This document shows, in pieces, positions 19,090 to 28,182 of a DNA stretch of 64,000 nucleotides. Made by a program: the position numbers and the translations under genes. Each line of letters opens with the position of its first letter. The stretch's first letter is position 1. Where the stretch lies: the NCBI GenBank assembly GCA_041392665.1, contig JAWKLQ010000031.1:18-64017 (forward strand), read 5' to 3'. The DNA comes from Saprospiraceae bacterium. GTDB lineage: Bacteria > Bacteroidota > Bacteroidia > Chitinophagales > Saprospiraceae. The notes beneath the pieces are model-generated. The model saw only the letters and a program-made list of their open reading frames with translations, did not search any database and was not told the DNA's origin.

Positions 19090-19842
19090 TTAGCTCTTTT
19101 GAAATCCCAGATACTCCCCGATCTTGAAAGCCAGTATCTTTCCCCATTTCATCTTTCGGGGACTATAATGATTAAAGTAGCGACTAACTTCCCAGACCAG
19201 TCTTTTGCGTTTAAGGAAACTTTGTTTGGCGACAAAGGATTCCGGATGCTGCCGGTAAAAGGTAAGCGGTTCCTGCAAGATCCTCCGCCGGCCCCTGATA
19301 ATACTCTGTACGTGGATGCGGTTGTCGAACCAGATCAACCGGAATGCTTCGTTGATGGGGAACATGCTTGCCATAAACTCCCGCTCGGCCACCAGACAGC
19401 TGGTTGCGGCTATATAACCTACCATGAATCGCTCGCGTACATCTTCCAGGGTAGCCTCCGGAATATGCGGTTCACCGGGAGTATAGCTGTGGGCCAGCAG
19501 ATCAAAAGGTCGTTCCTGATATTCGCTTATTACTCTATCAACCTTGTGTGGTAAAAATGCATCGTCCCCATCCAGTAAAAAAATGAGCTGTCCGGTAGAG
19601 AGGTAGAAGGCCTCCTGGATACCATGTGCCTGATTGAGCATGGAGGTTTTTCCGTAATTGGGATGATGGATGAGTTTGGCTTCAGGAAATTTTGCGATCT
19701 CCTCTAAGGACTGATCGGTGCTTCCGTCGTCGTAAACGATCACTTCAATTTCGTGGGTAGTTTCCTGCCCGAAAGCACTCTCCAGGCATTCTCTTATGTA
19801 CGGTCCGTTGTTGTAGTTGTTGATCAGGATGCTAACCTTCAT
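19090..19842 (-). CDS. GT2 glycosyltransferase
   Basis: VSILINNYNNG, VYDDGSTD, LLDGDD and LTFYRQH. Confidence 0.92.
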   Translation of the reverse strand: MKVSILINNYNNGPYIRECLESAFGQETTHEIEVIVYDDGSTDQSLEEIAKFPEAKLIHHPNYGKTSMLNQAHGIQEAFYLSTGQLIFLLDGDDAFLPHKVDRVISEYQERPFDLLAHSYTPGEPHIPEATLEDVRERFMVGYIAATSCLVAEREFMASMFPINEAFRLIWFDNRIHVQSIIRGRRRILQEPLTFYRQHPESFVAKQSFLKRKRLVWEVSRYFNHYSPRKMKWGKILAFKIGEYLGFQKS

Positions 19843-19861: not shown

Positions 19862-21037
19862 CTACACCGTCAACCATCTCATCACATACACCAGGGCGAT
19901 ACTGACGATCAGTCCAAAAGTGACCTTTGCCAGATCCGATCCGATCATCCGGTAGGTGCGGTACATAGGATGCTCGGTACTCCTGGTTTCCAGAAAAGTG
20001 ACCAATGCCCGGACGATAATAGCCGCGGCAAAGGTATAAATGATCAGGTGGTTGTCACTAATGGGAATGGCTCCTTCCGGCTCCGCCATTACCAGATACA
20101 GGCTGTATCCCACAACATAAACGACAAAAGCCAGCACGATCACGTTGGTAACAACCGTGAGTGTACGATAGAGACTCGTGGAGGAGTAAGTCTCTTTTCC
20201 CAGTCGGTAACGGATGGCGATCTCCCGGCCAGCCAGTAAGCCCAGGAAGACCCAGGTGGTAGACATCGGTACATTGCTCAGCTCTTTGAAGAAGAGTAGG
20301 ATCAGCGCGTATAGAAAGTCGATGATGGTTGCTGACCGGATATCAACTGTATTGGTCTTGGCCTTGACGATCTGTTGAATGGCACCTCCTCGTGAGTAAA
20401 AAATGTAGCCCAACATGGCGAGTAGAACCAATAGTGAGAAGAGTAATTGGTTAAGCGTCAATGATCTCGGTAGGTAAACGTAAATATTGGCAAAATCCTG
20501 GATCAGCCACTGTCCCCAAAGGAAACCCGTAGAGCACCATTGCAAAACCGTCCAGATGCTTTTTTCGCGTGGAGTGATCGGGTTTTGGATGAACCGCCGA
20601 TCCAGAAAACGGGTGACAACCTGCCAGATCAGAATGGCGGCTGCAAAAGCCAGAACATAGCCCAAAACGGACTTCATGGTCATATCCAGCAGCCCCTTAG
20701 GCTTGAAGAAGGTAAGTATGAGGAAGGAGGTACTTACCGGAATACCCGTCCGGGTCAGCAACATGAGGACCAAGGGCGGTAATAGATAAGGCCAGCTTAG
20801 ATTCTCAATGAAAGCATAGGATTGCAATCTTCCGTATGATACATCACCCTGATAGTTGTTCCATCCGAGTATCAGCGTGAAAGCCAGAATACTTCCTGCG
20901 TAAAGCCACAACACATACCAGGACCGTTCTTCATTGGAAGAAAGAAAAGTGCCGAGTGTCTGAATACTGTCGTTACCCACTACGGAATAACCGGCCAGGA
21001 GAAATCCCAGCCACATGATCACCAATGAATAGTCCAT
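19862..21037 (-). CDS. Polytopic membrane protein, distant PiT/PHO4-type anion (phosphate) permease-like
   Basis: About 11 TM segments. GNDSIQTLG and QDFAN echo the PiT GAND/ND signature; PVSTS and PMSTT echo PiT PVSTT. ORF track starts at 21070. Confidence 0.55.
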   Translation of the reverse strand: MDYSLVIMWLGFLLAGYSVVGNDSIQTLGTFLSSNEERSWYVLWLYAGSILAFTLILGWNNYQGDVSYGRLQSYAFIENLSWPYLLPPLVLMLLTRTGIPVSTSFLILTFFKPKGLLDMTMKSVLGYVLAFAAAILIWQVVTRFLDRRFIQNPITPREKSIWTVLQWCSTGFLWGQWLIQDFANIYVYLPRSLTLNQLLFSLLVLLAMLGYIFYSRGGAIQQIVKAKTNTVDIRSATIIDFLYALILLFFKELSNVPMSTTWVFLGLLAGREIAIRYRLGKETYSSTSLYRTLTVVTNVIVLAFVVYVVGYSLYLVMAEPEGAIPISDNHLIIYTFAAAIIVRALVTFLETRSTEHPMYRTYRMIGSDLAKVTFGLIVSIALVYVMRWLTV

Positions 21038-21331
21038 TAAAGGTTGACTTGTTGTTATGGCTTTCTGCAAATCAAATAGAACACGGTATCTCCATATCGC
21101 CTTTTCAGATATCTGTTGCGGAAAGCGATTGCGCTAAAAATAAGGATTCGATTTTGATTTCCCGGGATTTGAAAGTTTACTTTTTTATTAATTCTAAGGC
21201 TGACGGCAAACGGTTTCCGATGAACTGTTATTGATGCATAAATCTTCGTTTCAGGTAGCACTTCTATGGTTTATCATGTTTAGCGCACCTCTGGCCGTCT
21301 ACTATGCTTTGATTACTGTGTTCAAGATGAA

Positions 21332-21372
21332 TAAGAGCCCTCCTGATCCAAATGGGCTCGGGAGGGCTCTTA
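21332..21372 (-). terminator. Intrinsic terminator after the TonB-dependent receptor gene
   Basis: TAAGAGCCCTCC...GGAGGGCTCTTA inverted repeat about 30 bp past the stop at 21403. Confidence 0.7.
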
Positions 21373-21402
21373 TACACATTAAACTAAAGCTTTTGCCCTG
21401 GA

Positions 21403-24289
21403 TTAGAACTTGTGGCTGATGCCCAATCCGATAGTTGTACCAGGATTAATGCTGTTAAAGATCTGGTCTCTGGCCTGATAAGACTGATAAAGGCTTTCAG
21501 TACGGTCATTCAGGATATTGGAAACCTGTAGATCAATAGAAGTATTTTGATCCTTGCCGAATTTCTTGGCAATGCTGAAATTGAGACTGTGGAAAGGTTG
21601 GAAATAAATATCCGGATAAAGACCGCCACCAACAATTTCCAGCGTCTTACCTTTTACGTTGTAGAACAAACCGGCATCCCATCCCTTGTCCTGATTAGCA
21701 TAAGCCAGACCGGCATTGATCACGAAAGGTGCCTGACCGGCCATCTGACGGGTATCGGCCAGATTCTCGCCGTTTCTTTCGAAATTCTTGCGGGCATTGA
21801 ATTCGGTATTCGTCATATCAATGATAGACTCTACGAACGTCACATTACCGCTGAAGCTCAGGTTCTCCAGAGAAGGAGAAATGAAGGCCAGCGTTTTACG
21901 GATTTCCAGTTCTACACCATACAAACGACCGTCACCTACGTTACGCGGCTGGAATTCGGTACTCGTCTGCTGTTCGGGAATGCGGACCAGTTCGATAGGA
22001 TTGTCGAACTGCTTGTAGAAAGTACTAATGGAAAACAGCTGACCACCTTCCTGGAATAACTCCCAGCGCAGGTCAAAGTTATTGATCCGGGTTTCGCTCA
22101 ATACACCGCCCCAGTCACCATAACTGAAAAGGGAACCGTTAAAGATCCGGTTGGTGATCGGGTCCAGGATCTGTGCGTAAGACAACTCTTTGAAAGAAGG
22201 CCGGGCGATGGTACGGGAATAAGAAGCCCGCAGGTTCTGATTGTCAGTGAGCGACAGGATAAGATTGGCCGTCGGGAAGAAATCCAGATTATCCAGTACT
22301 TTCTCGTTGTCCAGATTCTTACCGTTAGCTACATCTCCACTGGCATAAGCCTGGTCGCGGCCGGTATGGCGTTGCACAAAGTTCTCGGCTCTCACTCCAA
22401 TAATGGCCTTCAGGTTGTTGAAGGGCGTAAATTCATTGGAAACATAAAAGGCCGAATTGTTCACGTTAGATGAATAAGCGTTCGGGTTCGGAATGGGGTT
22501 ACCTGACTGAAAATAGATCCGATTGGGCCGGTTCGGGTAGATGTATTCGGGGCTCAATACTACCGATGGATCCGGATTCGGCCAATCCTGTCCGCCAAAG
22601 AACTGAACATCGAAGAACAGGATCTCGTAATCCCGCTCCTTATATACGTGGCTGCCCCCGAACTTGAACTTGGCATCCTCACCGTTGAATTCATAGCTCT
22701 TGGTCAGATCGAACTTGGCCACCGCGTTTACTTCGTTCCAGAGAGCGCCAGATCCGACTGAAGTTCCACCTGCCGGCAGAAAAGGTGCCGGCTGAAGTCT
22801 TGGTAAATGCTGTTTTACGAATATCAGGGTCATCCGAAGTGGAGAAAGTAGGAGACAGACGCCAGTCCAGTTCCCAACCAGATTCTTCTCCCCCCAGCAG
22901 GTGACGACCACCGAGGAAGAAGTTAGTCAGTGAACGTTCGTTGTATTCGAGGTTATGAGAGTTGGCGAAGTAGCCGGATTGTCCAACTGCTTCTCCGTCA
23001 TTATCGATATCAAAGATACCGGCGCGGTTTTCACCGTTTTGCAAACGCATGGCCGTTAAACGGATCTTACTATTGGCCGTTTTGTAAGCCAGGCCGCCCA
23101 AAGCGCCGATCAATACGCTCTGCTCACCTATCTGACCGTTCTGGATAGTCGCGTAACGCAATTCATACTGGCTTGGATCACTATAGCGTTGATATTCGCT
23201 GTAGATCACATCATCGTAATACTTGTATCCGTTCTTGTAGGACAGAGAGAAAATATATCCGAATTTCTTATCGGCGCTCAGATCTAACTGGTTGCCAAGG
23301 GAGATCCCTGCACTGTAATCAATAAAGCTGCTTTTGCGTTGTGCACCCAATACCGGGCTGAAACTGCGCACAAACTGATTCACCTGATCATCCGAAGCCC
23401 CACTGATCGGAGTCGGTATGTTCTCGGCATCGGCTCCTGCGGGCAGCGCTCTGGTGCCGTCATCATAACCCAACCAGTCGGTATTACCGCCTTCATAGGT
23501 CAGCCAATCCTTATTGAAGTGCATATTGGGGTTGTACGAAGTACTCAGCGATACGCTGAAGATCTTTTCTTCCGGAAAATCTTTCGTTTCAATATTCATT
23601 AGGCCCCCGGTAAAGTCGGCCGGCATATCAGCTGTAAAGTTTTTGCTTACCACCAGGTTATCCAGCAAAGTGGTGGGGAAAATGTCCATTTGCAGGGTAT
23701 TACGGTCGGGGTCCAGGCCCGGGATTTCCACGCCATTTAGGGTTGTTTTGGAGTAGCGGTCACCCAAGCCGCGAACATATACATACTTTCCTCCTTCTAT
23801 AGAAACTCCGGTCACCCGCTTAGCCGCTTCAACGGCAGTGGCGTCACCGGTCAATTGCATTCTGGAAGAGGAAATACCGTCCACCATGGCCGGAGCTTGT
23901 TTTTTGAGCAGTAGGAGCGCTGTTTCGGTCTTGCGAATGGCACTGGCCTTTACCACTACCTCGTTGAGGGTCACATTGTCTTCAGATAATGTGATCTCTC
24001 CCAAAGCAGTCACCTCGCCGGCAGCCACTTCAATGTCTTCAATGGTTAAGGTTTGAAAACCGATATAAGTAATCTGAATAGCGTAAGTACCTGGAGCTAC
24101 CTGAATGGCAAATGCACCGTCCAGGTCGGTTACAGATCCTATGGATGCATCGTCCTTGAGGGTTACGTTGGCACCAATAACCGTCAGTCCTGAACCTGCC
24201 TCAATAATAGTACCGCGAATGGTACCGTTTTGTGCAGAGATGGCAGAAACAAAAAAAGAGAAAACTAAAATAGTGAGTATTCGCCTCAT
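21403..24289 (-). pseudogene. TonB-dependent receptor (CarboxypepD_reg-like N-domain, plug, barrel) split by a frameshift near 22735-22780; true pseudogene or sequencing error
   Basis: ORF 22691-24367 (start MRRILT at 24289) carries the plug motif YVYVRGLGDRY. ORF 21403-22911 carries the barrel and C-terminal GISHKF. Sense reading switches frame at SRIWRSL / EVNAVAKFDL. Confidence 0.85.
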
Positions 24290-24373
24290 CTGATATAAAG
24301 TATTAAAAATTGAGAATGAGAAGGCCTGCCATTTATGGGGAGACCTTCTCATTTTATGTAGGTTCACCCTTTA

Positions 24374-24505
24374 GTGACGGAGCAAAAATAAATGAACCAA
24401 TTGTAGGTTTTTAATATTTCGTTAAGCCATTGACTATCAGGAGATGGTGTGCGAAATTTTCAAAACCTCTAGAAAAAATTGGTTCATTTATTTCCGTCAA
24501 ATTAC
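24374..24505 (+). mobile_element. 132-bp MITE, copy 3
   Basis: Flanked by TTA on both sides (24371-24373, 24506-24508); nearly identical to the reverse complement of copy 4. Confidence 0.92.
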
Positions 24506-24540
24506 TTATTGAGTTCCCCTCGGAATATTAAGAGACTATC

Positions 24541-26016
24541 TTAAAAACCGTCCAGTGTACCACTTTCAACTGCCCAGGTCCAGCTAAAGCCGGTCAGGTC
24601 AGCAGTGGGTGCACCACCGGCAACGATACCTGCAGGGATCGGAGTGCCATTTACGTGGCTGCCCAGTTCGTCGGCCGGAACATCCAACATGATGTTAGTG
24701 TAGAATACCAGAGGAGCGGTGATCCGGTTGATCATCTGTCCGTCGTTAATACCCGTAATGAAAATGTTTTCCAGGGTAACCTCTGTATTAGCATCGGTAT
24801 TGATCAGGTCTTCAGACGGACGATCAGCCGTACTGGCAATAACCAGACCATTTTTAATCGTATGACTTCCATGAGCAGTTCCTTCCGGACCGTCAAGCTC
24901 GAAGCAGTGACCTGCAGGTGCAATTACTACGAAGTTGTCCAACGTACCAGCCCAGGCCTGGTCGGTGTCAACACCGTCATCACCAACGTTCCAGGAGATC
25001 AGGTTGGTAACATTTACTGTACCACCGAAGAATTCGATAGCATCATCCTGGTTGGATACGATCTCCACATTATCGATAACCGTACCGCTACCAACACCAC
25101 CCAGAGACAGGCCGTTGATCTCGTTACCGGAACCGATGTTAGTACCGCCGTGGCGGATGGAAACATACTTGAATACACCAGAGTTGTCGGCGGGATCATC
25201 ACCACCGTACAGACCATTGGTATCAGAAGTCGGGATACCTTCGATCTGAACTTCACTTACATCTTCGTCATTGTCATTAGAAGCAGAGATCGGGGCTTTA
25301 CCCAGAATGATCACACCACCCCAAAGACCGTTGATTACCGGATCGAGGTTCGGGCTGGCGTAGTTGCCGGCAGCGATATCTTCACCGGTGATCTCATCGG
25401 CAACAGAGGTGAAAATGATCGGCAGTTCAGCTGTACCTTCAGCCATGATCGTACCCCCACGGGCGATCAGCAGCGCCGTAGCATTAGCTGCAGCACCGGC
25501 CTGGCCTTTGATCACGGTACCCGGCTCGATGGTCAGGGTTACACCGTCTACAACGGTAATACGGCCACCCAGGATGTAGGTTTTGTCGGCCGTCCAGGTT
25601 GCATCAGCCGTAATATTGCTGGTCAGCAGAATTTCATTGGGATCTTCAGCGATGTTGATCACAGCAGTAGCCTGATCAGATTGACCTTCAGAGTCAGTTA
25701 CTTTCAGAGTGATAGCCGCAGCACCGGCAGTTGTACCGGCGTCATAGTTGACAGTTACAGAAGAGCCACTTACAGAACCTGAACCGTTAGTTACCGTTAC
25801 GCCAGAACCGGTTGCAGTGTACGTAGCAGTCAAGGCAGCATCGACGCTAACGGTGAAAGTGAGAGACTGACCGGTAGCTCCATTCTCTACGTTCTGTACA
25901 CCAGAAGGTGCCGTTACAGTAGGTTGGTCGTAAGTAGTAGCCGGATCGTCTTTTTTACAGGATGTATAAAGAAGTACAGCAAAGAGCAAAAATAAGCTCG
26001 ATAATTTAAGTTTCAT
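24541..26016 (-). CDS. Lipoprotein with Ig-like N-domain and right-handed beta-helix domain (TBDT-associated family)
   Basis: Lipobox YTSCKKDD; motifs TLTIEPGTVIK, PIIFTS, WGGVIILG, NSGVFKYVSIRHGG, EINGL, DDAIEFFGG and DDGVDTDQ. Confidence 0.85.
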   Translation of the reverse strand: MKLKLSSLFLLFAVLLYTSCKKDDPATTYDQPTVTAPSGVQNVENGATGQSLTFTVSVDAALTATYTATGSGVTVTNGSGSVSGSSVTVNYDAGTTAGAAAITLKVTDSEGQSDQATAVINIAEDPNEILLTSNITADATWTADKTYILGGRITVVDGVTLTIEPGTVIKGQAGAAANATALLIARGGTIMAEGTAELPIIFTSVADEITGEDIAAGNYASPNLDPVINGLWGGVIILGKAPISASNDNDEDVSEVQIEGIPTSDTNGLYGGDDPADNSGVFKYVSIRHGGTNIGSGNEINGLSLGGVGSGTVIDNVEIVSNQDDAIEFFGGTVNVTNLISWNVGDDGVDTDQAWAGTLDNFVVIAPAGHCFELDGPEGTAHGSHTIKNGLVIASTADRPSEDLINTDANTEVTLENIFITGINDGQMINRITAPLVFYTNIMLDVPADELGSHVNGTPIPAGIVAGGAPTADLTGFSWTWAVESGTLDGF

Positions 26017-26073
26017 ACAATGATATTTTTGGTTGATCATAATTCGGCGCAAATGTCTCTACCACGCAATAAT

Positions 26074-26105
26074 CAAAGATTACGTGAACATTAATTCTTT
26101 GTTAA
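26074..26105 (-). promoter_or_regulatory. Three 11-bp-periodic boxes (OmpR/PhoB-type site) next to a -7-like box
   Basis: Minus strand reads TTAACA-aagaa-TTAATG-ttcac-GTAATC-TTTG; AATCTTTG is a near match to TAnnTTTG, about 60 bp before the lipoprotein ATG. Confidence 0.45.
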
Positions 26106-26280
26106 GTCATTCAGGGCTCGAAAGGTGTGGGATTATGGTAGGTTCTATTGGTGTAGGTTCGGAGGATCTTAGATTTGTTAGTAGCGTTTCAAATTCGGGG
26201 CAAAATTCGCACGACTATATGAACTGAGAATTAAAGCGGTGTTAAGTAATTGTAAATAAAACACTAACTTTTCACGGCCA

Positions 26281-26436: not shown

Positions 26437-28182
26437 CTAAGAAGGGGATTGCGTATCCTTATAAACTTTGGAAAAGCGCAGGCGTTGCCGGTAAGGATAA
26501 ATATCTACCAGCTCTCCCCGCTTGAGCATATTCTGTACGCCGATCCAGTATTTGGCGGTGAACAGATCGCCGTGCAGGCGCTGAAAGATCTCCCGGATCT
26601 CTCGCCGGCCGATCAGAAAGCGGGGGAATTCCTCGGGAAAAACGTCGTTGGGCCCCACCGAGTACCAGGGTTCTCCAGACATTTCCTGTTCCAGATCGCG
26701 GGCTGGGGGAATGACCCGGAAATTATAATCGGTCAGGAAACCGATCTCATCGTAATCATAGAATACCACTCTTCTCAATCTCGTCACACCGAAATTTTTG
26801 AGGAGCATGTCACCCGGGAAGATGTTAACCGCCGCCATTTGTTTGATGGCTTTGCCGTATTCGTTGATCACATCTTCGGCTTCTTCCAGACTGGCTTTTT
26901 CCAGATATAGGTTGAGCGGGATCATTCGTTTTTCCACGTAGAGATGGGTGATCTCGATATGCTGATCGGTTAGCTTGATCTTGGAAGGGGCATCTTCAAG
27001 AAGTTCCTCGATCAATTCTTCGGAGAAACGGGAACGTTCAAATACAAAGTTTTCGAACATATGACTGTCGGCCATGCGTCCTACACGGTCGTGCGATGAT
27101 ACAAGGGTGTACTTCTCCTTGACTTCCTTTTCCGTGACTTTTTTCGGTGCAGGGAATCTATCCTTGATCACTTTGAAAACAAAAGGGTAGGAGGGAAGTG
27201 TAAATACGATCATCACCAGCCCTTTGATACCCGGTGCACTGATGAAAGAATCCTCCGTCATAAACAAATGCCGGAGAAAGTCGCGGAACATGACGGTCTT
27301 TCCGTGTTTTTCGAATCCGATAGAGTTATACAATTCACCCATGCTCTTGGTGGGCAGAATGGTGCGCAGAAAATCCACCATTTCACTGGCAATATCGGTA
27401 TCTGTCAAAAAGTAAGAGCGGTTATAGCCAAAAATAGAACTGACATCATTCTTCTCCAGCAGGACGGTGTCGGCAAAAATACCGTTCTCTTTGTGCAGAA
27501 GCGGAATGACCAACGGGCGAATGTGTTCATTCAGTACCAGACGTCCAACAATATAGGCGGCTTTGTTCCGAAAGAAAATGGATTTCAAGAGTTCGATCCG
27601 GGAAGTATTGCCGGTGAAATTCAGTGATTTGAGTTTCCGCTCCAGCGTATCCGAAACATAGAACACATCCCGGTCCAGATCCTCAAAAGGAGCGTCGAAA
27701 GGATAAAATGCAAATAACTGCCGGATCGTATGGTGGAAGGGCTGGATCAGATGCAGGGTATGATAGATGGGAATACGGGATTTGAATTCGCGATACGTAC
27801 CGGTGGCTTCCACATACATCAGTTCTTCATCTACGCTCAAGCCCTTATGACTGTGGCGGTATACTGAATTGTAGTACGTCTCGGCAATGTTCCGGCTATT
27901 GAAATTGAAGATCTCCTCCGTGAACATTTGTTTGACCAGTTTCCAGGTATCCCGGTTGTGATGACGCACTCCCAGAAACTCCAATACTTTTTCCGTGGTC
28001 GCACCAACACTGTCCCGATAGAGGGTTACCCGCTCGTTGGAATCGGCCTGTATGCCCTTCCAGTCTCTCCTTTCGAACCGGATCTTAGCCCGCTTGGTAA
28101 TCCGCTTGTATTCCCGGTGATAGGCAGAATAGTCTGCCAGGATAATGTGGGCAACGTCGTAGGGTATTAACTTCTCAAACAT
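26437..28182 (-). CDS. aceK: Isocitrate dehydrogenase kinase/phosphatase
   Basis: AETYYNSV, IFFRNKAAYIVG, APGIKGLVMIVF, VFKVIKDRF, HDRVGRMAD, NIFPGDMLLKNFGVTR..RVVFYDYDEI and NDVFPEEF. Confidence 0.96.
   Translation of the reverse strand: MFEKLIPYDVAHIILADYSAYHREYKRITKRAKIRFERRDWKGIQADSNERVTLYRDSVGATTEKVLEFLGVRHHNRDTWKLVKQMFTEEIFNFNSRNIAETYYNSVYRHSHKGLSVDEELMYVEATGTYREFKSRIPIYHTLHLIQPFHHTIRQLFAFYPFDAPFEDLDRDVFYVSDTLERKLKSLNFTGNTSRIELLKSIFFRNKAAYIVGRLVLNEHIRPLVIPLLHKENGIFADTVLLEKNDVSSIFGYNRSYFLTDTDIASEMVDFLRTILPTKSMGELYNSIGFEKHGKTVMFRDFLRHLFMTEDSFISAPGIKGLVMIVFTLPSYPFVFKVIKDRFPAPKKVTEKEVKEKYTLVSSHDRVGRMADSHMFENFVFERSRFSEELIEELLEDAPSKIKLTDQHIEITHLYVEKRMIPLNLYLEKASLEEAEDVINEYGKAIKQMAAVNIFPGDMLLKNFGVTRLRRVVFYDYDEIGFLTDYNFRVIPPARDLEQEMSGEPWYSVGPNDVFPEEFPRFLIGRREIREIFQRLHGDLFTAKYWIGVQNMLKRGELVDIYPYRQRLRFSKVYKDTQSPS

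Follow-up and report, generated by a model that had tools for sequence, protein, structure and literature searches.

What a surface lipoprotein, a TonB-dependent transporter and an unnamed inner-membrane permease might import together is the question raised by three co-oriented genes of a Saprospiraceae bacterium (assembly GCA_041392665.1). The genes lie on contig JAWKLQ010000031.1, in the 64,000-nucleotide stretch that was analysed as a whole and is referred to below as the window. The first-pass annotation, made from the sequence of the window, had proposed that they form a Pho-regulated route for phosphate or an organophosphorus compound across both membranes. This proposal was supported by the predicted fold of the permease, by conserved gene neighbourhood, by a shared promoter motif at pstSCAB and phoX, and by published induction of similar pairs at low inorganic phosphate (Pi). 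We put the probability that the locus is a phosphorus-scavenging module of the Pho regulon at roughly 0.7. All genes of interest are on the minus strand of a 9.44-Mb genome (99.97 % complete, Saprospiraceae-like family), whose closest named relative among the loci fetched is Flavilitoribacter nigricans (aceK 91 % identical). The three genes are as follows.

19862-21037, minus strand: permease of 391 amino acids, a divergent PiT-family member as judged from motifs and predicted fold
21403-24289, minus strand: TonB-dependent transporter (the receptor) with CarboxypepD_reg, Plug and barrel domains, matched in Pfam and NCBIfam
24541-26016, minus strand: predicted surface lipoprotein of 491 amino acids, its body a right-handed beta-helix (Pfam Beta_helix_4) preceded by an Ig-like domain

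The permease and the PiT family

Searches of Pfam, NCBIfam and PDB sequences, conducted with the single protein and with a family profile, returned no match for the permease. Its close relatives number in the thousands, all unnamed and recorded publicly as 'hypothetical protein'. An exhaustive HMMER search (E up to 0.001) gathered 781 representative clusters at 50 % identity, with members in Bacteroidota, Acinetobacter, cyanobacteria, planctomycetes and others. The protein consists of two inverted repeats carrying the motifs N22-D23, P100-V-S-T-S104, Q180-D181 and P257-M-S-T-T261. An alignment of 47 family sequences contains four conserved motifs, NDSIQT, PVSTT, QDxAN and PMSTTW, so that the PiT-like ND and PxSTT signatures noticed at the outset in both repeats are family-wide, the second repeat having QD. 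When these 47 relatives were scanned singly, 18 matched the Pfam PHO4 model (PF01384) at E up to 1 (best, 5.2e-7), and hhalign comparison of the family with canonical PHO4 proteins of the same bacterial family gave a probability of 79.9 % (E 1.4e-5, 245 columns), with the four motifs in register.

An AlphaFold2 (AF2) model of the permease (predicted local distance difference test score, pLDDT, 89.4; predicted template modelling score, pTM, 0.86) had a single significant fold match, TmPiT (PDB 6L85), the Na/Pi transporter of Thermotoga. The Foldseek comparison suggested in the first-pass annotation gave probability 1.00 and a template modelling (TM) score of 0.47-0.51, while VIA gave Z 22.7 with a root-mean-square deviation of 3.8 over 293 residues (next match, Z 7.2). 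TmPiT binds phosphate through D22, S105/T106/T107, D258 and S345/T346/T347, and two sodium ions through N21/D22, N257/D258 and the residue preceding each serine (PMC7413737). The corresponding permease residues are N22/D23, V101/S102/T103/S104, Q180/D181 and M258/S259/T260/T261; all eight phosphate-holding positions are thus kept as Asp/Ser/Thr/Thr or Ser, and D240 is a candidate third-site Asp. With TmPiT, PitA, SLC20 and PF01384 the permease shares the fold, the two inverted repeats and GxND-/PxSxT-type motifs in register. It differs from TmPiT and PHO4 proteins in having QD for ND in the second repeat, Phe/Trp in place of His after S-T-T, a core of only about 290 residues and a lineage-specific C-terminal extension of ca. 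100 amino acids forming three helices, and in having no PHO4 match at any threshold. Since fold and motifs agree with the PiT family where the Pfam model fails, we conclude that the permease is, by its modelled structure and motifs, a very divergent PiT-family member of a subfamily missed by current annotation. It would act as a cation/phosphate symporter.

Some PiT-family members carry other oxyanions (for example, CysP of Bacillus subtilis). The distance of the family from PHO4, the QD substitution and the Phe/Trp after S-T-T would be in keeping with sulfate or arsenate as the substrate instead of phosphate, but the retention of all eight phosphate positions is not, and promoters and neighbours, described below, also speak for phosphate.

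The distribution of the permease was determined in a survey of 121 genera of the bacterial family, in which a canonical PHO4 protein was defined by E below 1e-50. The permease occurs in 57 genera and canonical PHO4 in 23, and the permease is present in 2/23 genera with canonical PHO4 versus 55/98 without. Because only two genera have both types, this near-exclusive pattern suggests functional replacement, with the reservation that related genomes are not independent. The genome studied here has no canonical PHO4 gene. The Pst ABC transporter is rare in the family, PstC scoring over the cut-off in 17 of the 121 genera; this genome has pstSCAB as well as the permease and the pair, and in the genome of the same genus PstC was not found.

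Promoters of the locus

The elements found between the genes are given below.

26201-26258, minus strand: distal Pho-box-like array (TTTAC, TTAAC, TTAAT and GTTCA units, 11-bp period) with a TTTG -7 box
26050-26108, minus strand: proximal Pho-box-like array (TTAAC, TTAAT, GTAAT, TTATT) with a TTTG -7 box, the predicted promoter of the lipoprotein-receptor operon
21333-21371, minus strand: hairpin with 11-bp G+C-rich arms 3' of the receptor stop codon, found by direct reading of the sequence
21173-21194, minus strand: two-unit Pho-box-like element (TTAAT, GTAAA), ca. 157 nt 5' of the permease start

Upstream of the lipoprotein gene, four units with an exact 11-bp period occupy positions 26065-26108 and end 12 nt before the TTTG box at 26050-26053. 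The first-pass annotation had reported TTAA-type boxes of this periodicity and likened their geometry to that of PhoB/OmpR sites. A position weight matrix (PWM) was made from the tandem units and scored over three units at the 18.9 million strand positions of the genome. At a threshold of 14, 47 matches were obtained, and the lipoprotein promoter holds ranks 2 (26076-26108, with the fourth unit reaching to 26065; score 25.7) and 7 (26216-26248; score 21.5), far above chance. Spacing to the -7 box is the same at other matches in the genome. Tandem TTAAC/TTAAT units with the 11-bp period, ending ca. 12 nt 5' of a TTTG box, were likewise found upstream of the lipoprotein gene in 19 loci (the window and 18 related loci; loci from other genomes are designated by L numbers where they are named below). 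A scan for sigma-70 promoters and terminators yielded fewer matches than did shuffled sequences, and missed the hairpin.

The same motif precedes the core Pho genes of this genome. One match (score 16.7) lies at -75 of pstS, which heads the sole pstSCAB operon, and two arrays lie upstream of the sole phoX gene. Scores of 3720 control upstream regions had a 99th percentile of 8.4 and a 99.9th percentile of 18.7; chance matches at both of these single-copy genes are therefore very unlikely. Given its place before the pstSCAB operon and phoX, of which the genome has one each, the TTAA array is most likely the Pho box of this lineage, and a PhoB-type protein is predicted to bind it, in line with the geometry first noted. 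Across the phylum, 26/41 promoters of lipoprotein-receptor pairs scored above the 95th percentile of neighbouring genes, and in these loci the motif also stands 5' of pstS, OprP and PHO4 genes. The motif does not mark every phosphate-related gene: the five PhoD-like genes of the genome have no array upstream. PhoU was not found in this genome.

Further matches precede a PF04185 phosphoesterase, a DUF4956 protein and four more TonB receptors. The predicted regulon members elsewhere in the genome (C11:21977-25237, C9:94888-97446, C12:37671-40730, C45:290757-299092, C32:61370-62962 and C45:204668-205417) include three more TonB receptors, a cluster of a receptor and a 914-amino-acid propeller-phosphoesterase, and the DUF4956 protein. 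The top match of the genome (27.1) is at an alpha/beta hydrolase gene diverging from that of a 173-amino-acid protein of unknown kind.

The PhoP box of B. subtilis consists of TT(A/T/C)ACA repeats. In the cyanobacterial SphR box, three 8-bp CTTAACCT repeats are separated by 3-bp linkers (PMC1906773). The unit found here equals CTTAACCT with a 3-bp linker, giving 11-bp direct repeats with a TTAAC/TTAAT core in two to four copies just 5' of the promoter. In contrast to the SphR and PhoP boxes, the present arrays are found in Bacteroidota and stand before a -7 box of the TAnnTTTG type, with a PhoB-type protein as the candidate binder.

The permease gene is separated from that of the receptor by 365 bp, with the hairpin in between. 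The first-pass annotation had held that a terminator and a gap leave co-regulation unproven. Hairpin and gap are indeed present. L099, of the same genus, has a hairpin in the corresponding position, and that of the window probably serves as an intrinsic terminator or attenuates transcription. The reservation is answered, as far as sequence can answer it, by the promoters of other permease genes. Permease genes detached from the pair (L086, L103) are preceded by their own strong arrays, as is the permease gene of L098; where the gene lies close behind the receptor gene there is usually none, which fits an operon. Among lone permease genes from other Bacteroidota, Trichodesmium, Okeania and Blastopirellula, 18/80 scored above the 95th percentile of controls, with 4 expected. 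In the window, the two-unit element scored 10.2 (97.7th percentile of the 3720 controls). This element and a T-rich box downstream of it are kept in the sister species (L099), while the rest of the spacer has diverged. Pho-box arrays 5' of the permease gene in many lineages, together with neighbours that are phosphate genes and not sulfur genes, make transport of another oxyanion very improbable.

The distal array appears to have a separate origin. It aligns with the promoters of genes for multi-beta-helix proteins of 1455 and 1014 amino acids in L099, of the same genus, and in L098, and the alignment continues into the first codons of the multi-beta-helix gene, with the ATG deleted in the window (26150-26260). 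As read from this alignment, the distal array is the remnant of the promoter of an ancestral multi-beta-helix gene. For the present lipoprotein and receptor, identity is 68 % with the L085 proteins but only 44 % and 35 %, respectively, with their counterparts in the same-genus genome. Because a promoter and codon remnant lies upstream and the present pair is of the L085-like subtype, we conclude that an older pair was replaced in situ by another, which brought its own promoter along, while the permease gene and its upstream region stayed.

The outer-membrane pair and its neighbours

The lipoprotein gene starts at the ATG at 26016 (the protein begins MKLKL). Its lipobox, L-Y-T-S-C20, is followed by K-K-D-D; Cys20 is invariant, and acidic residues after the Cys are part of the family consensus. 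Acidic residues behind the lipobox Cys follow the rule for surface-export motifs, and the lipoprotein is predicted to be exposed on the cell surface. Pfam and NCBIfam searches recognised nothing in the lipoprotein and gave no SusD family match; a precomputed annotation assigns it to a recent Pfam family, PF28492 (Beta_helix_4). In the AF2 model (pLDDT 89), residues from about 30 to 122 form an Ig-like domain and residues 124-481 a right-handed parallel beta-helix; the latter matches beta-helix proteins (Z about 21) without preference for one family. The description of this protein as a surface beta-helix lipoprotein unlike SusD was therefore accurate. Related Beta_helix_4 lipoproteins have one, two, three or four tandem beta-helix modules and range from about 430 to 1870 amino acids (e.g., L099 5213-9580, and L146), always with one receptor beside them.

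The TonB-dependent receptor belongs to a family with a 22-strand barrel, a CarboxypepD_reg N-domain and a Plug. It is not of the SusC type, scoring 65.7 with the SusC model TIGR04056 (cut-off, 368). With a beta-helix lipoprotein that has no SusD match and a receptor this far below the cut-off, the two do not form a SusC/SusD pair. In the window the receptor gene reads as two overlapping open reading frames (ORFs), while each orthologue in the related genomes is encoded by one uninterrupted ORF (945-994 amino acids), and alignment narrows the reading-frame trouble to a 45-bp stretch:

22735-22779, strand not applicable: cluster of assembly errors inside the receptor gene, revealed by contigs of four public runs

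Logan contigs of four public wastewater/activated-sludge runs (X1-X4, from four different studies) were compared with the window, and all four match it except at these positions. There they have one base fewer at 22738, insertions after 22765, 22772, 22777 and 22779, and three substitutions. Applying these variants produces one ORF of 964 amino acids whose local sequence resembles the orthologues. Because contigs from four studies give this intact gene, we conclude that the split is an assembly error, as had been suspected. A pseudogene or a programmed frameshift is ruled out by the four independent metagenome assemblies. The packing of five indels and three substitutions into 45 bp suggests that the consensus of this genome assembly is locally poor, and other apparent frameshifts of the genome may be of the same kind. 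Six studies dated 2015 to 2024 have wastewater or activated-sludge metagenomes in which the same organism, or a near-identical strain, was found (window positions 22300-23200 checked); two of the runs are metatranscriptomes that contain a small share of the locus.

Pairs of this type are already known. In Flavobacterium johnsoniae, the lipoproteins FI, FII and FIII, which have a pectin-lyase fold, and the TonB-dependent transporters adjacent to them are among the proteins most strongly induced at low Pi in transcriptomics and proteomics, and FII lies in a phoBR operon with OprP (PMC8115612). The pairs are named PUSIV (transporter Fjoh_0545, lipoprotein FII, Fjoh_0546) and PUSIII (Fjoh_3857 and FI, Fjoh_3856) (Lidbury et al. 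2021, PMC8115612). BT4056, Fjoh_0546 and ElpS of Caulobacter have been grouped into one family of lids that serve non-SusC transporters and are conserved across 621 genera (Price 2023, bioRxiv 10.1101/2023.03.17.533168). ElpS is made upon phosphate starvation and released by cleavage (Le Blastier 2010, PMC2996285). With PUSIV and PUSIII the window shares a non-SusC transporter beside a pectin-lyase-fold lipoprotein and a Pho-type promoter, and homologous pairs in other Bacteroidota likewise have phoB-like regulators, OprP and pstS beside them, as does PUSIV. With BT4055/BT4056 and ElpS it shares the conserved adjacency of a surface beta-helix lipoprotein gene and a non-SusC transporter gene. 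In contrast to PUSIV, the lipoprotein gene comes first in the window, and the pair is followed by the divergent PiT-like permease instead of lying in a phoBR operon. Based on fold, Pfam label, adjacency, neighbourhood and promoter, and not on alignment to those proteins, the pair is of the ElpS/FII/BT4056 type. What is new is the divergent PiT subfamily and its coupling to such a pair.

This coupling recurs, as the proposed neighbourhood survey revealed. In 22/57 permease-bearing genera, a Beta_helix_4 gene is present within 10 kb on the same contig, usually across a gap of 3-4.5 kb that is filled by the receptor gene. ORF maps of 20 regions have lipoprotein, receptor and permease genes co-directed, or the pair diverging from the permease; the linked loci come in three gene orders, their beta-helix may be single, double or triple, and they have unrelated genes on either side (BatA, CTP synthase, FolD, aspartyl protease). 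The lipoprotein gene adjoins a homologous receptor gene in 39/40 loci sampled across many families of the phylum. Other phosphate genes occur beside such pairs, namely those for PHO4-domain proteins of 746-776 amino acids (L100, L101, L102, L092, L130), OprO/P-type porins (L092, L102, L130), OmpR/PhoB-type regulators with histidine kinases (seven loci) and pstS (three loci). These PHO4 proteins are double the normal length, their C-terminal half being unassigned, and their genes often adjoin that of an OprO/P-type porin (L092 8459-12013, L100 3500-5740, L101 3262-5556, L102 3254-6965, L130 13638-17188); about 33/121 genera of the family have such a long PHO4 protein. In four loci (L132, L135, L142, L158) an MFS_1 transporter gene diverges from the receptor gene, and in three (L132, L141, L156) a calcineurin-like phosphoesterase (Metallophos) gene abuts the lipoprotein gene; both are alternative partners of the pair, the first in the inner membrane and the second hydrolytic. 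Permease loci of Acinetobacter, Cyclobacteriaceae, Flavobacteriaceae, Latescibacterota and cyanobacteria have no pair nearby, and the trio, as seen from the permease, is confined to the family studied here. The only recurrent 'clusters' beside permease genes outside the family turned out to be spurious ORFs inside the permease gene.

The beta-helix resembles polysaccharide lyases, glycoside hydrolase family 28 (GH28) enzymes and tailspikes, and the top NCBIfam match of the receptor is a Xanthomonas/Caulobacter subfamily known for carbohydrate scavenging. The pair could thus be seen as a pectate-lyase-like enzyme and its receptor, taking up a glycan unrelated to phosphate, with the TTAA repeats serving another regulator. 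The structural neighbours of the lipoprotein, however, make a flat list (Z 17-21) of tailspikes, NosD, polysaccharide lyase family 6 (PL6) enzymes, epimerases, GH28 enzymes and dozens of unrelated families, which, for a modelled structure, identifies the fold and no more. No particular enzyme identity emerged for the beta-helix, since the list is flat and the GH28 motif order is not reproduced (by eye). No carbohydrate-active enzymes recur beside the pair in the 40 loci, the identical repeat type stands 5' of pstSCAB and phoX, and such pairs are induced at low Pi (PMC8115612). Glycan uptake is accordingly the least credible reading of the locus, and we consider it scarcely tenable.

A different alternative is raised by the conserved surface of the lipoprotein. 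Successive coils of the beta-helix carry an invariant acidic ladder (E299; D324/D325/E328; D346/D347/D350/D352; E373/D375/E378), which suggests cation binding. In one large family of the phylum (L126, L146, L147, L149, L150, L153-L155, L159, L160) the pair is part of a fixed block of exbB, exbD, exbD, AIR-synthase-like, ftsH, receptor, lipoprotein, PTPS and folE2 genes. Neighbours such as folE2 and PTPS are typical of zinc-sparing responses, and the block might hint at a metal link of the pair. The genes of the locus could then be co-regulated without sharing a pathway: the permease would be this lineage's replacement of PitA, the general phosphate transporter, the pair would import another substance required during phosphate stress, such as Ca, Fe or Zn as a cofactor of phosphatases, and the Pho genes would simply be clustered. 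The missing canonical PHO4 gene of this genome, the near-exclusive occurrence of the two permease types and the solitary permease genes of most other lineages agree with this explanation, as do the Asp/Glu ladder, the presence of folE2, PTPS and exbBD beside the pair, and the description of ElpS as an aid to phosphatase activity (PMC8115612). It does not account well for the repeated location of the pair beside four kinds of phosphate gene (the new PiT, the 750-amino-acid PHO4 protein, OprO/P and pstS), or for the survival of the three-gene order through the cassette replacement at this locus. We consider metal supply to phosphatases a real rival, if an unlikely one.

The locus is flanked by the following genes.

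26437-28182: aceK, upstream of the lipoprotein gene
19090-19842: glycosyltransferase family 2 (GT2) gene, beginning 19 nt past the permease stop codon

The GT2 gene has no permease neighbour in other genera. It is probably co-transcribed with the permease gene, and may be part of a glycan locus farther downstream or serve phosphate-sparing lipid remodelling.

Predicted function of the locus

Several observations weigh against a phosphorus-scavenging module. The permease of the window has no match to PF01384 even at E 10, let alone at the PHO4 gathering score, and its profile-level homology to PHO4 is moderate (79.9 % by hhalign). The invariant surface of the beta-helix is acidic and better suited to cations than to phosphate. 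The element upstream of the permease gene is limited to two units (97.7th percentile) and lies behind a terminator-like hairpin. The pair occurs in 101/121 genera versus 57 for the permease, and most permease loci outside the family have neither receptor nor lipoprotein gene nearby; the permease therefore does not need the pair. Finally, the case for this organism is built from sequence and models.

Phosphorus scavenging remains our preferred reading, and the locus would operate as follows. At low phosphate, a PhoB-type response regulator would bind the four 11-bp TTAA(C/T) direct repeats abutting the -7 box and switch on the lipoprotein-receptor operon; both binding and starvation induction are predicted from the array. 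The lipoprotein, exported to the surface, would join the TonB-dependent transporter, covering it as a lid or capturing its substrate, a partnership indicated by conserved adjacency and by published work on such pairs. The transporter would pump a phosphorus-containing cargo into the periplasm, and periplasmic Pi, imported as such or released there, would cross the inner membrane through the divergent PiT permease. Transcription of the permease gene could be due to read-through, to the weaker two-unit Pho-box promoter in front of it, or to both, and the flow of substrate from the outer-membrane pair to the permease is proposed to link the three proteins.

The acidic ladder can be accommodated in this scheme. 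Pectate lyases bind a polyanion via Ca2+, and by analogy a metal-bridged phosphate compound is one possibility for the cargo of the pair. A more specific version is a Pst-independent high-affinity route, with capture shifted to the outer membrane in a bacterial family that mostly lacks Pst. Phosphate, or a polymer of it that is a polyanion, would be trapped by the acidic beta-helix lid in its Ca-loaded form, the TonB transporter would concentrate it in the periplasm and the divergent PiT, of a family spread over many phyla, would complete uptake; this version is speculative, and we think it rather unlikely.

The existence of an unannotated PiT subfamily alters the reading of phosphate uptake capacity from genomes; the 9.4-Mb genome studied here otherwise looks devoid of PiT. 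The coupling of the permease to an ElpS/FII-type pair provides a concrete handle on the cargo, since the partner in the inner membrane suggests that inorganic phosphate is the final product. The TTAAC-type motif can be used to predict Pho regulons across Bacteroidota, including activated-sludge bacteria, where phosphorus cycling matters. Because PstC passed the cut-off in so few genera, PiT-type carriers and the outer-membrane pair may be the main low-phosphate route in most genera of the family.

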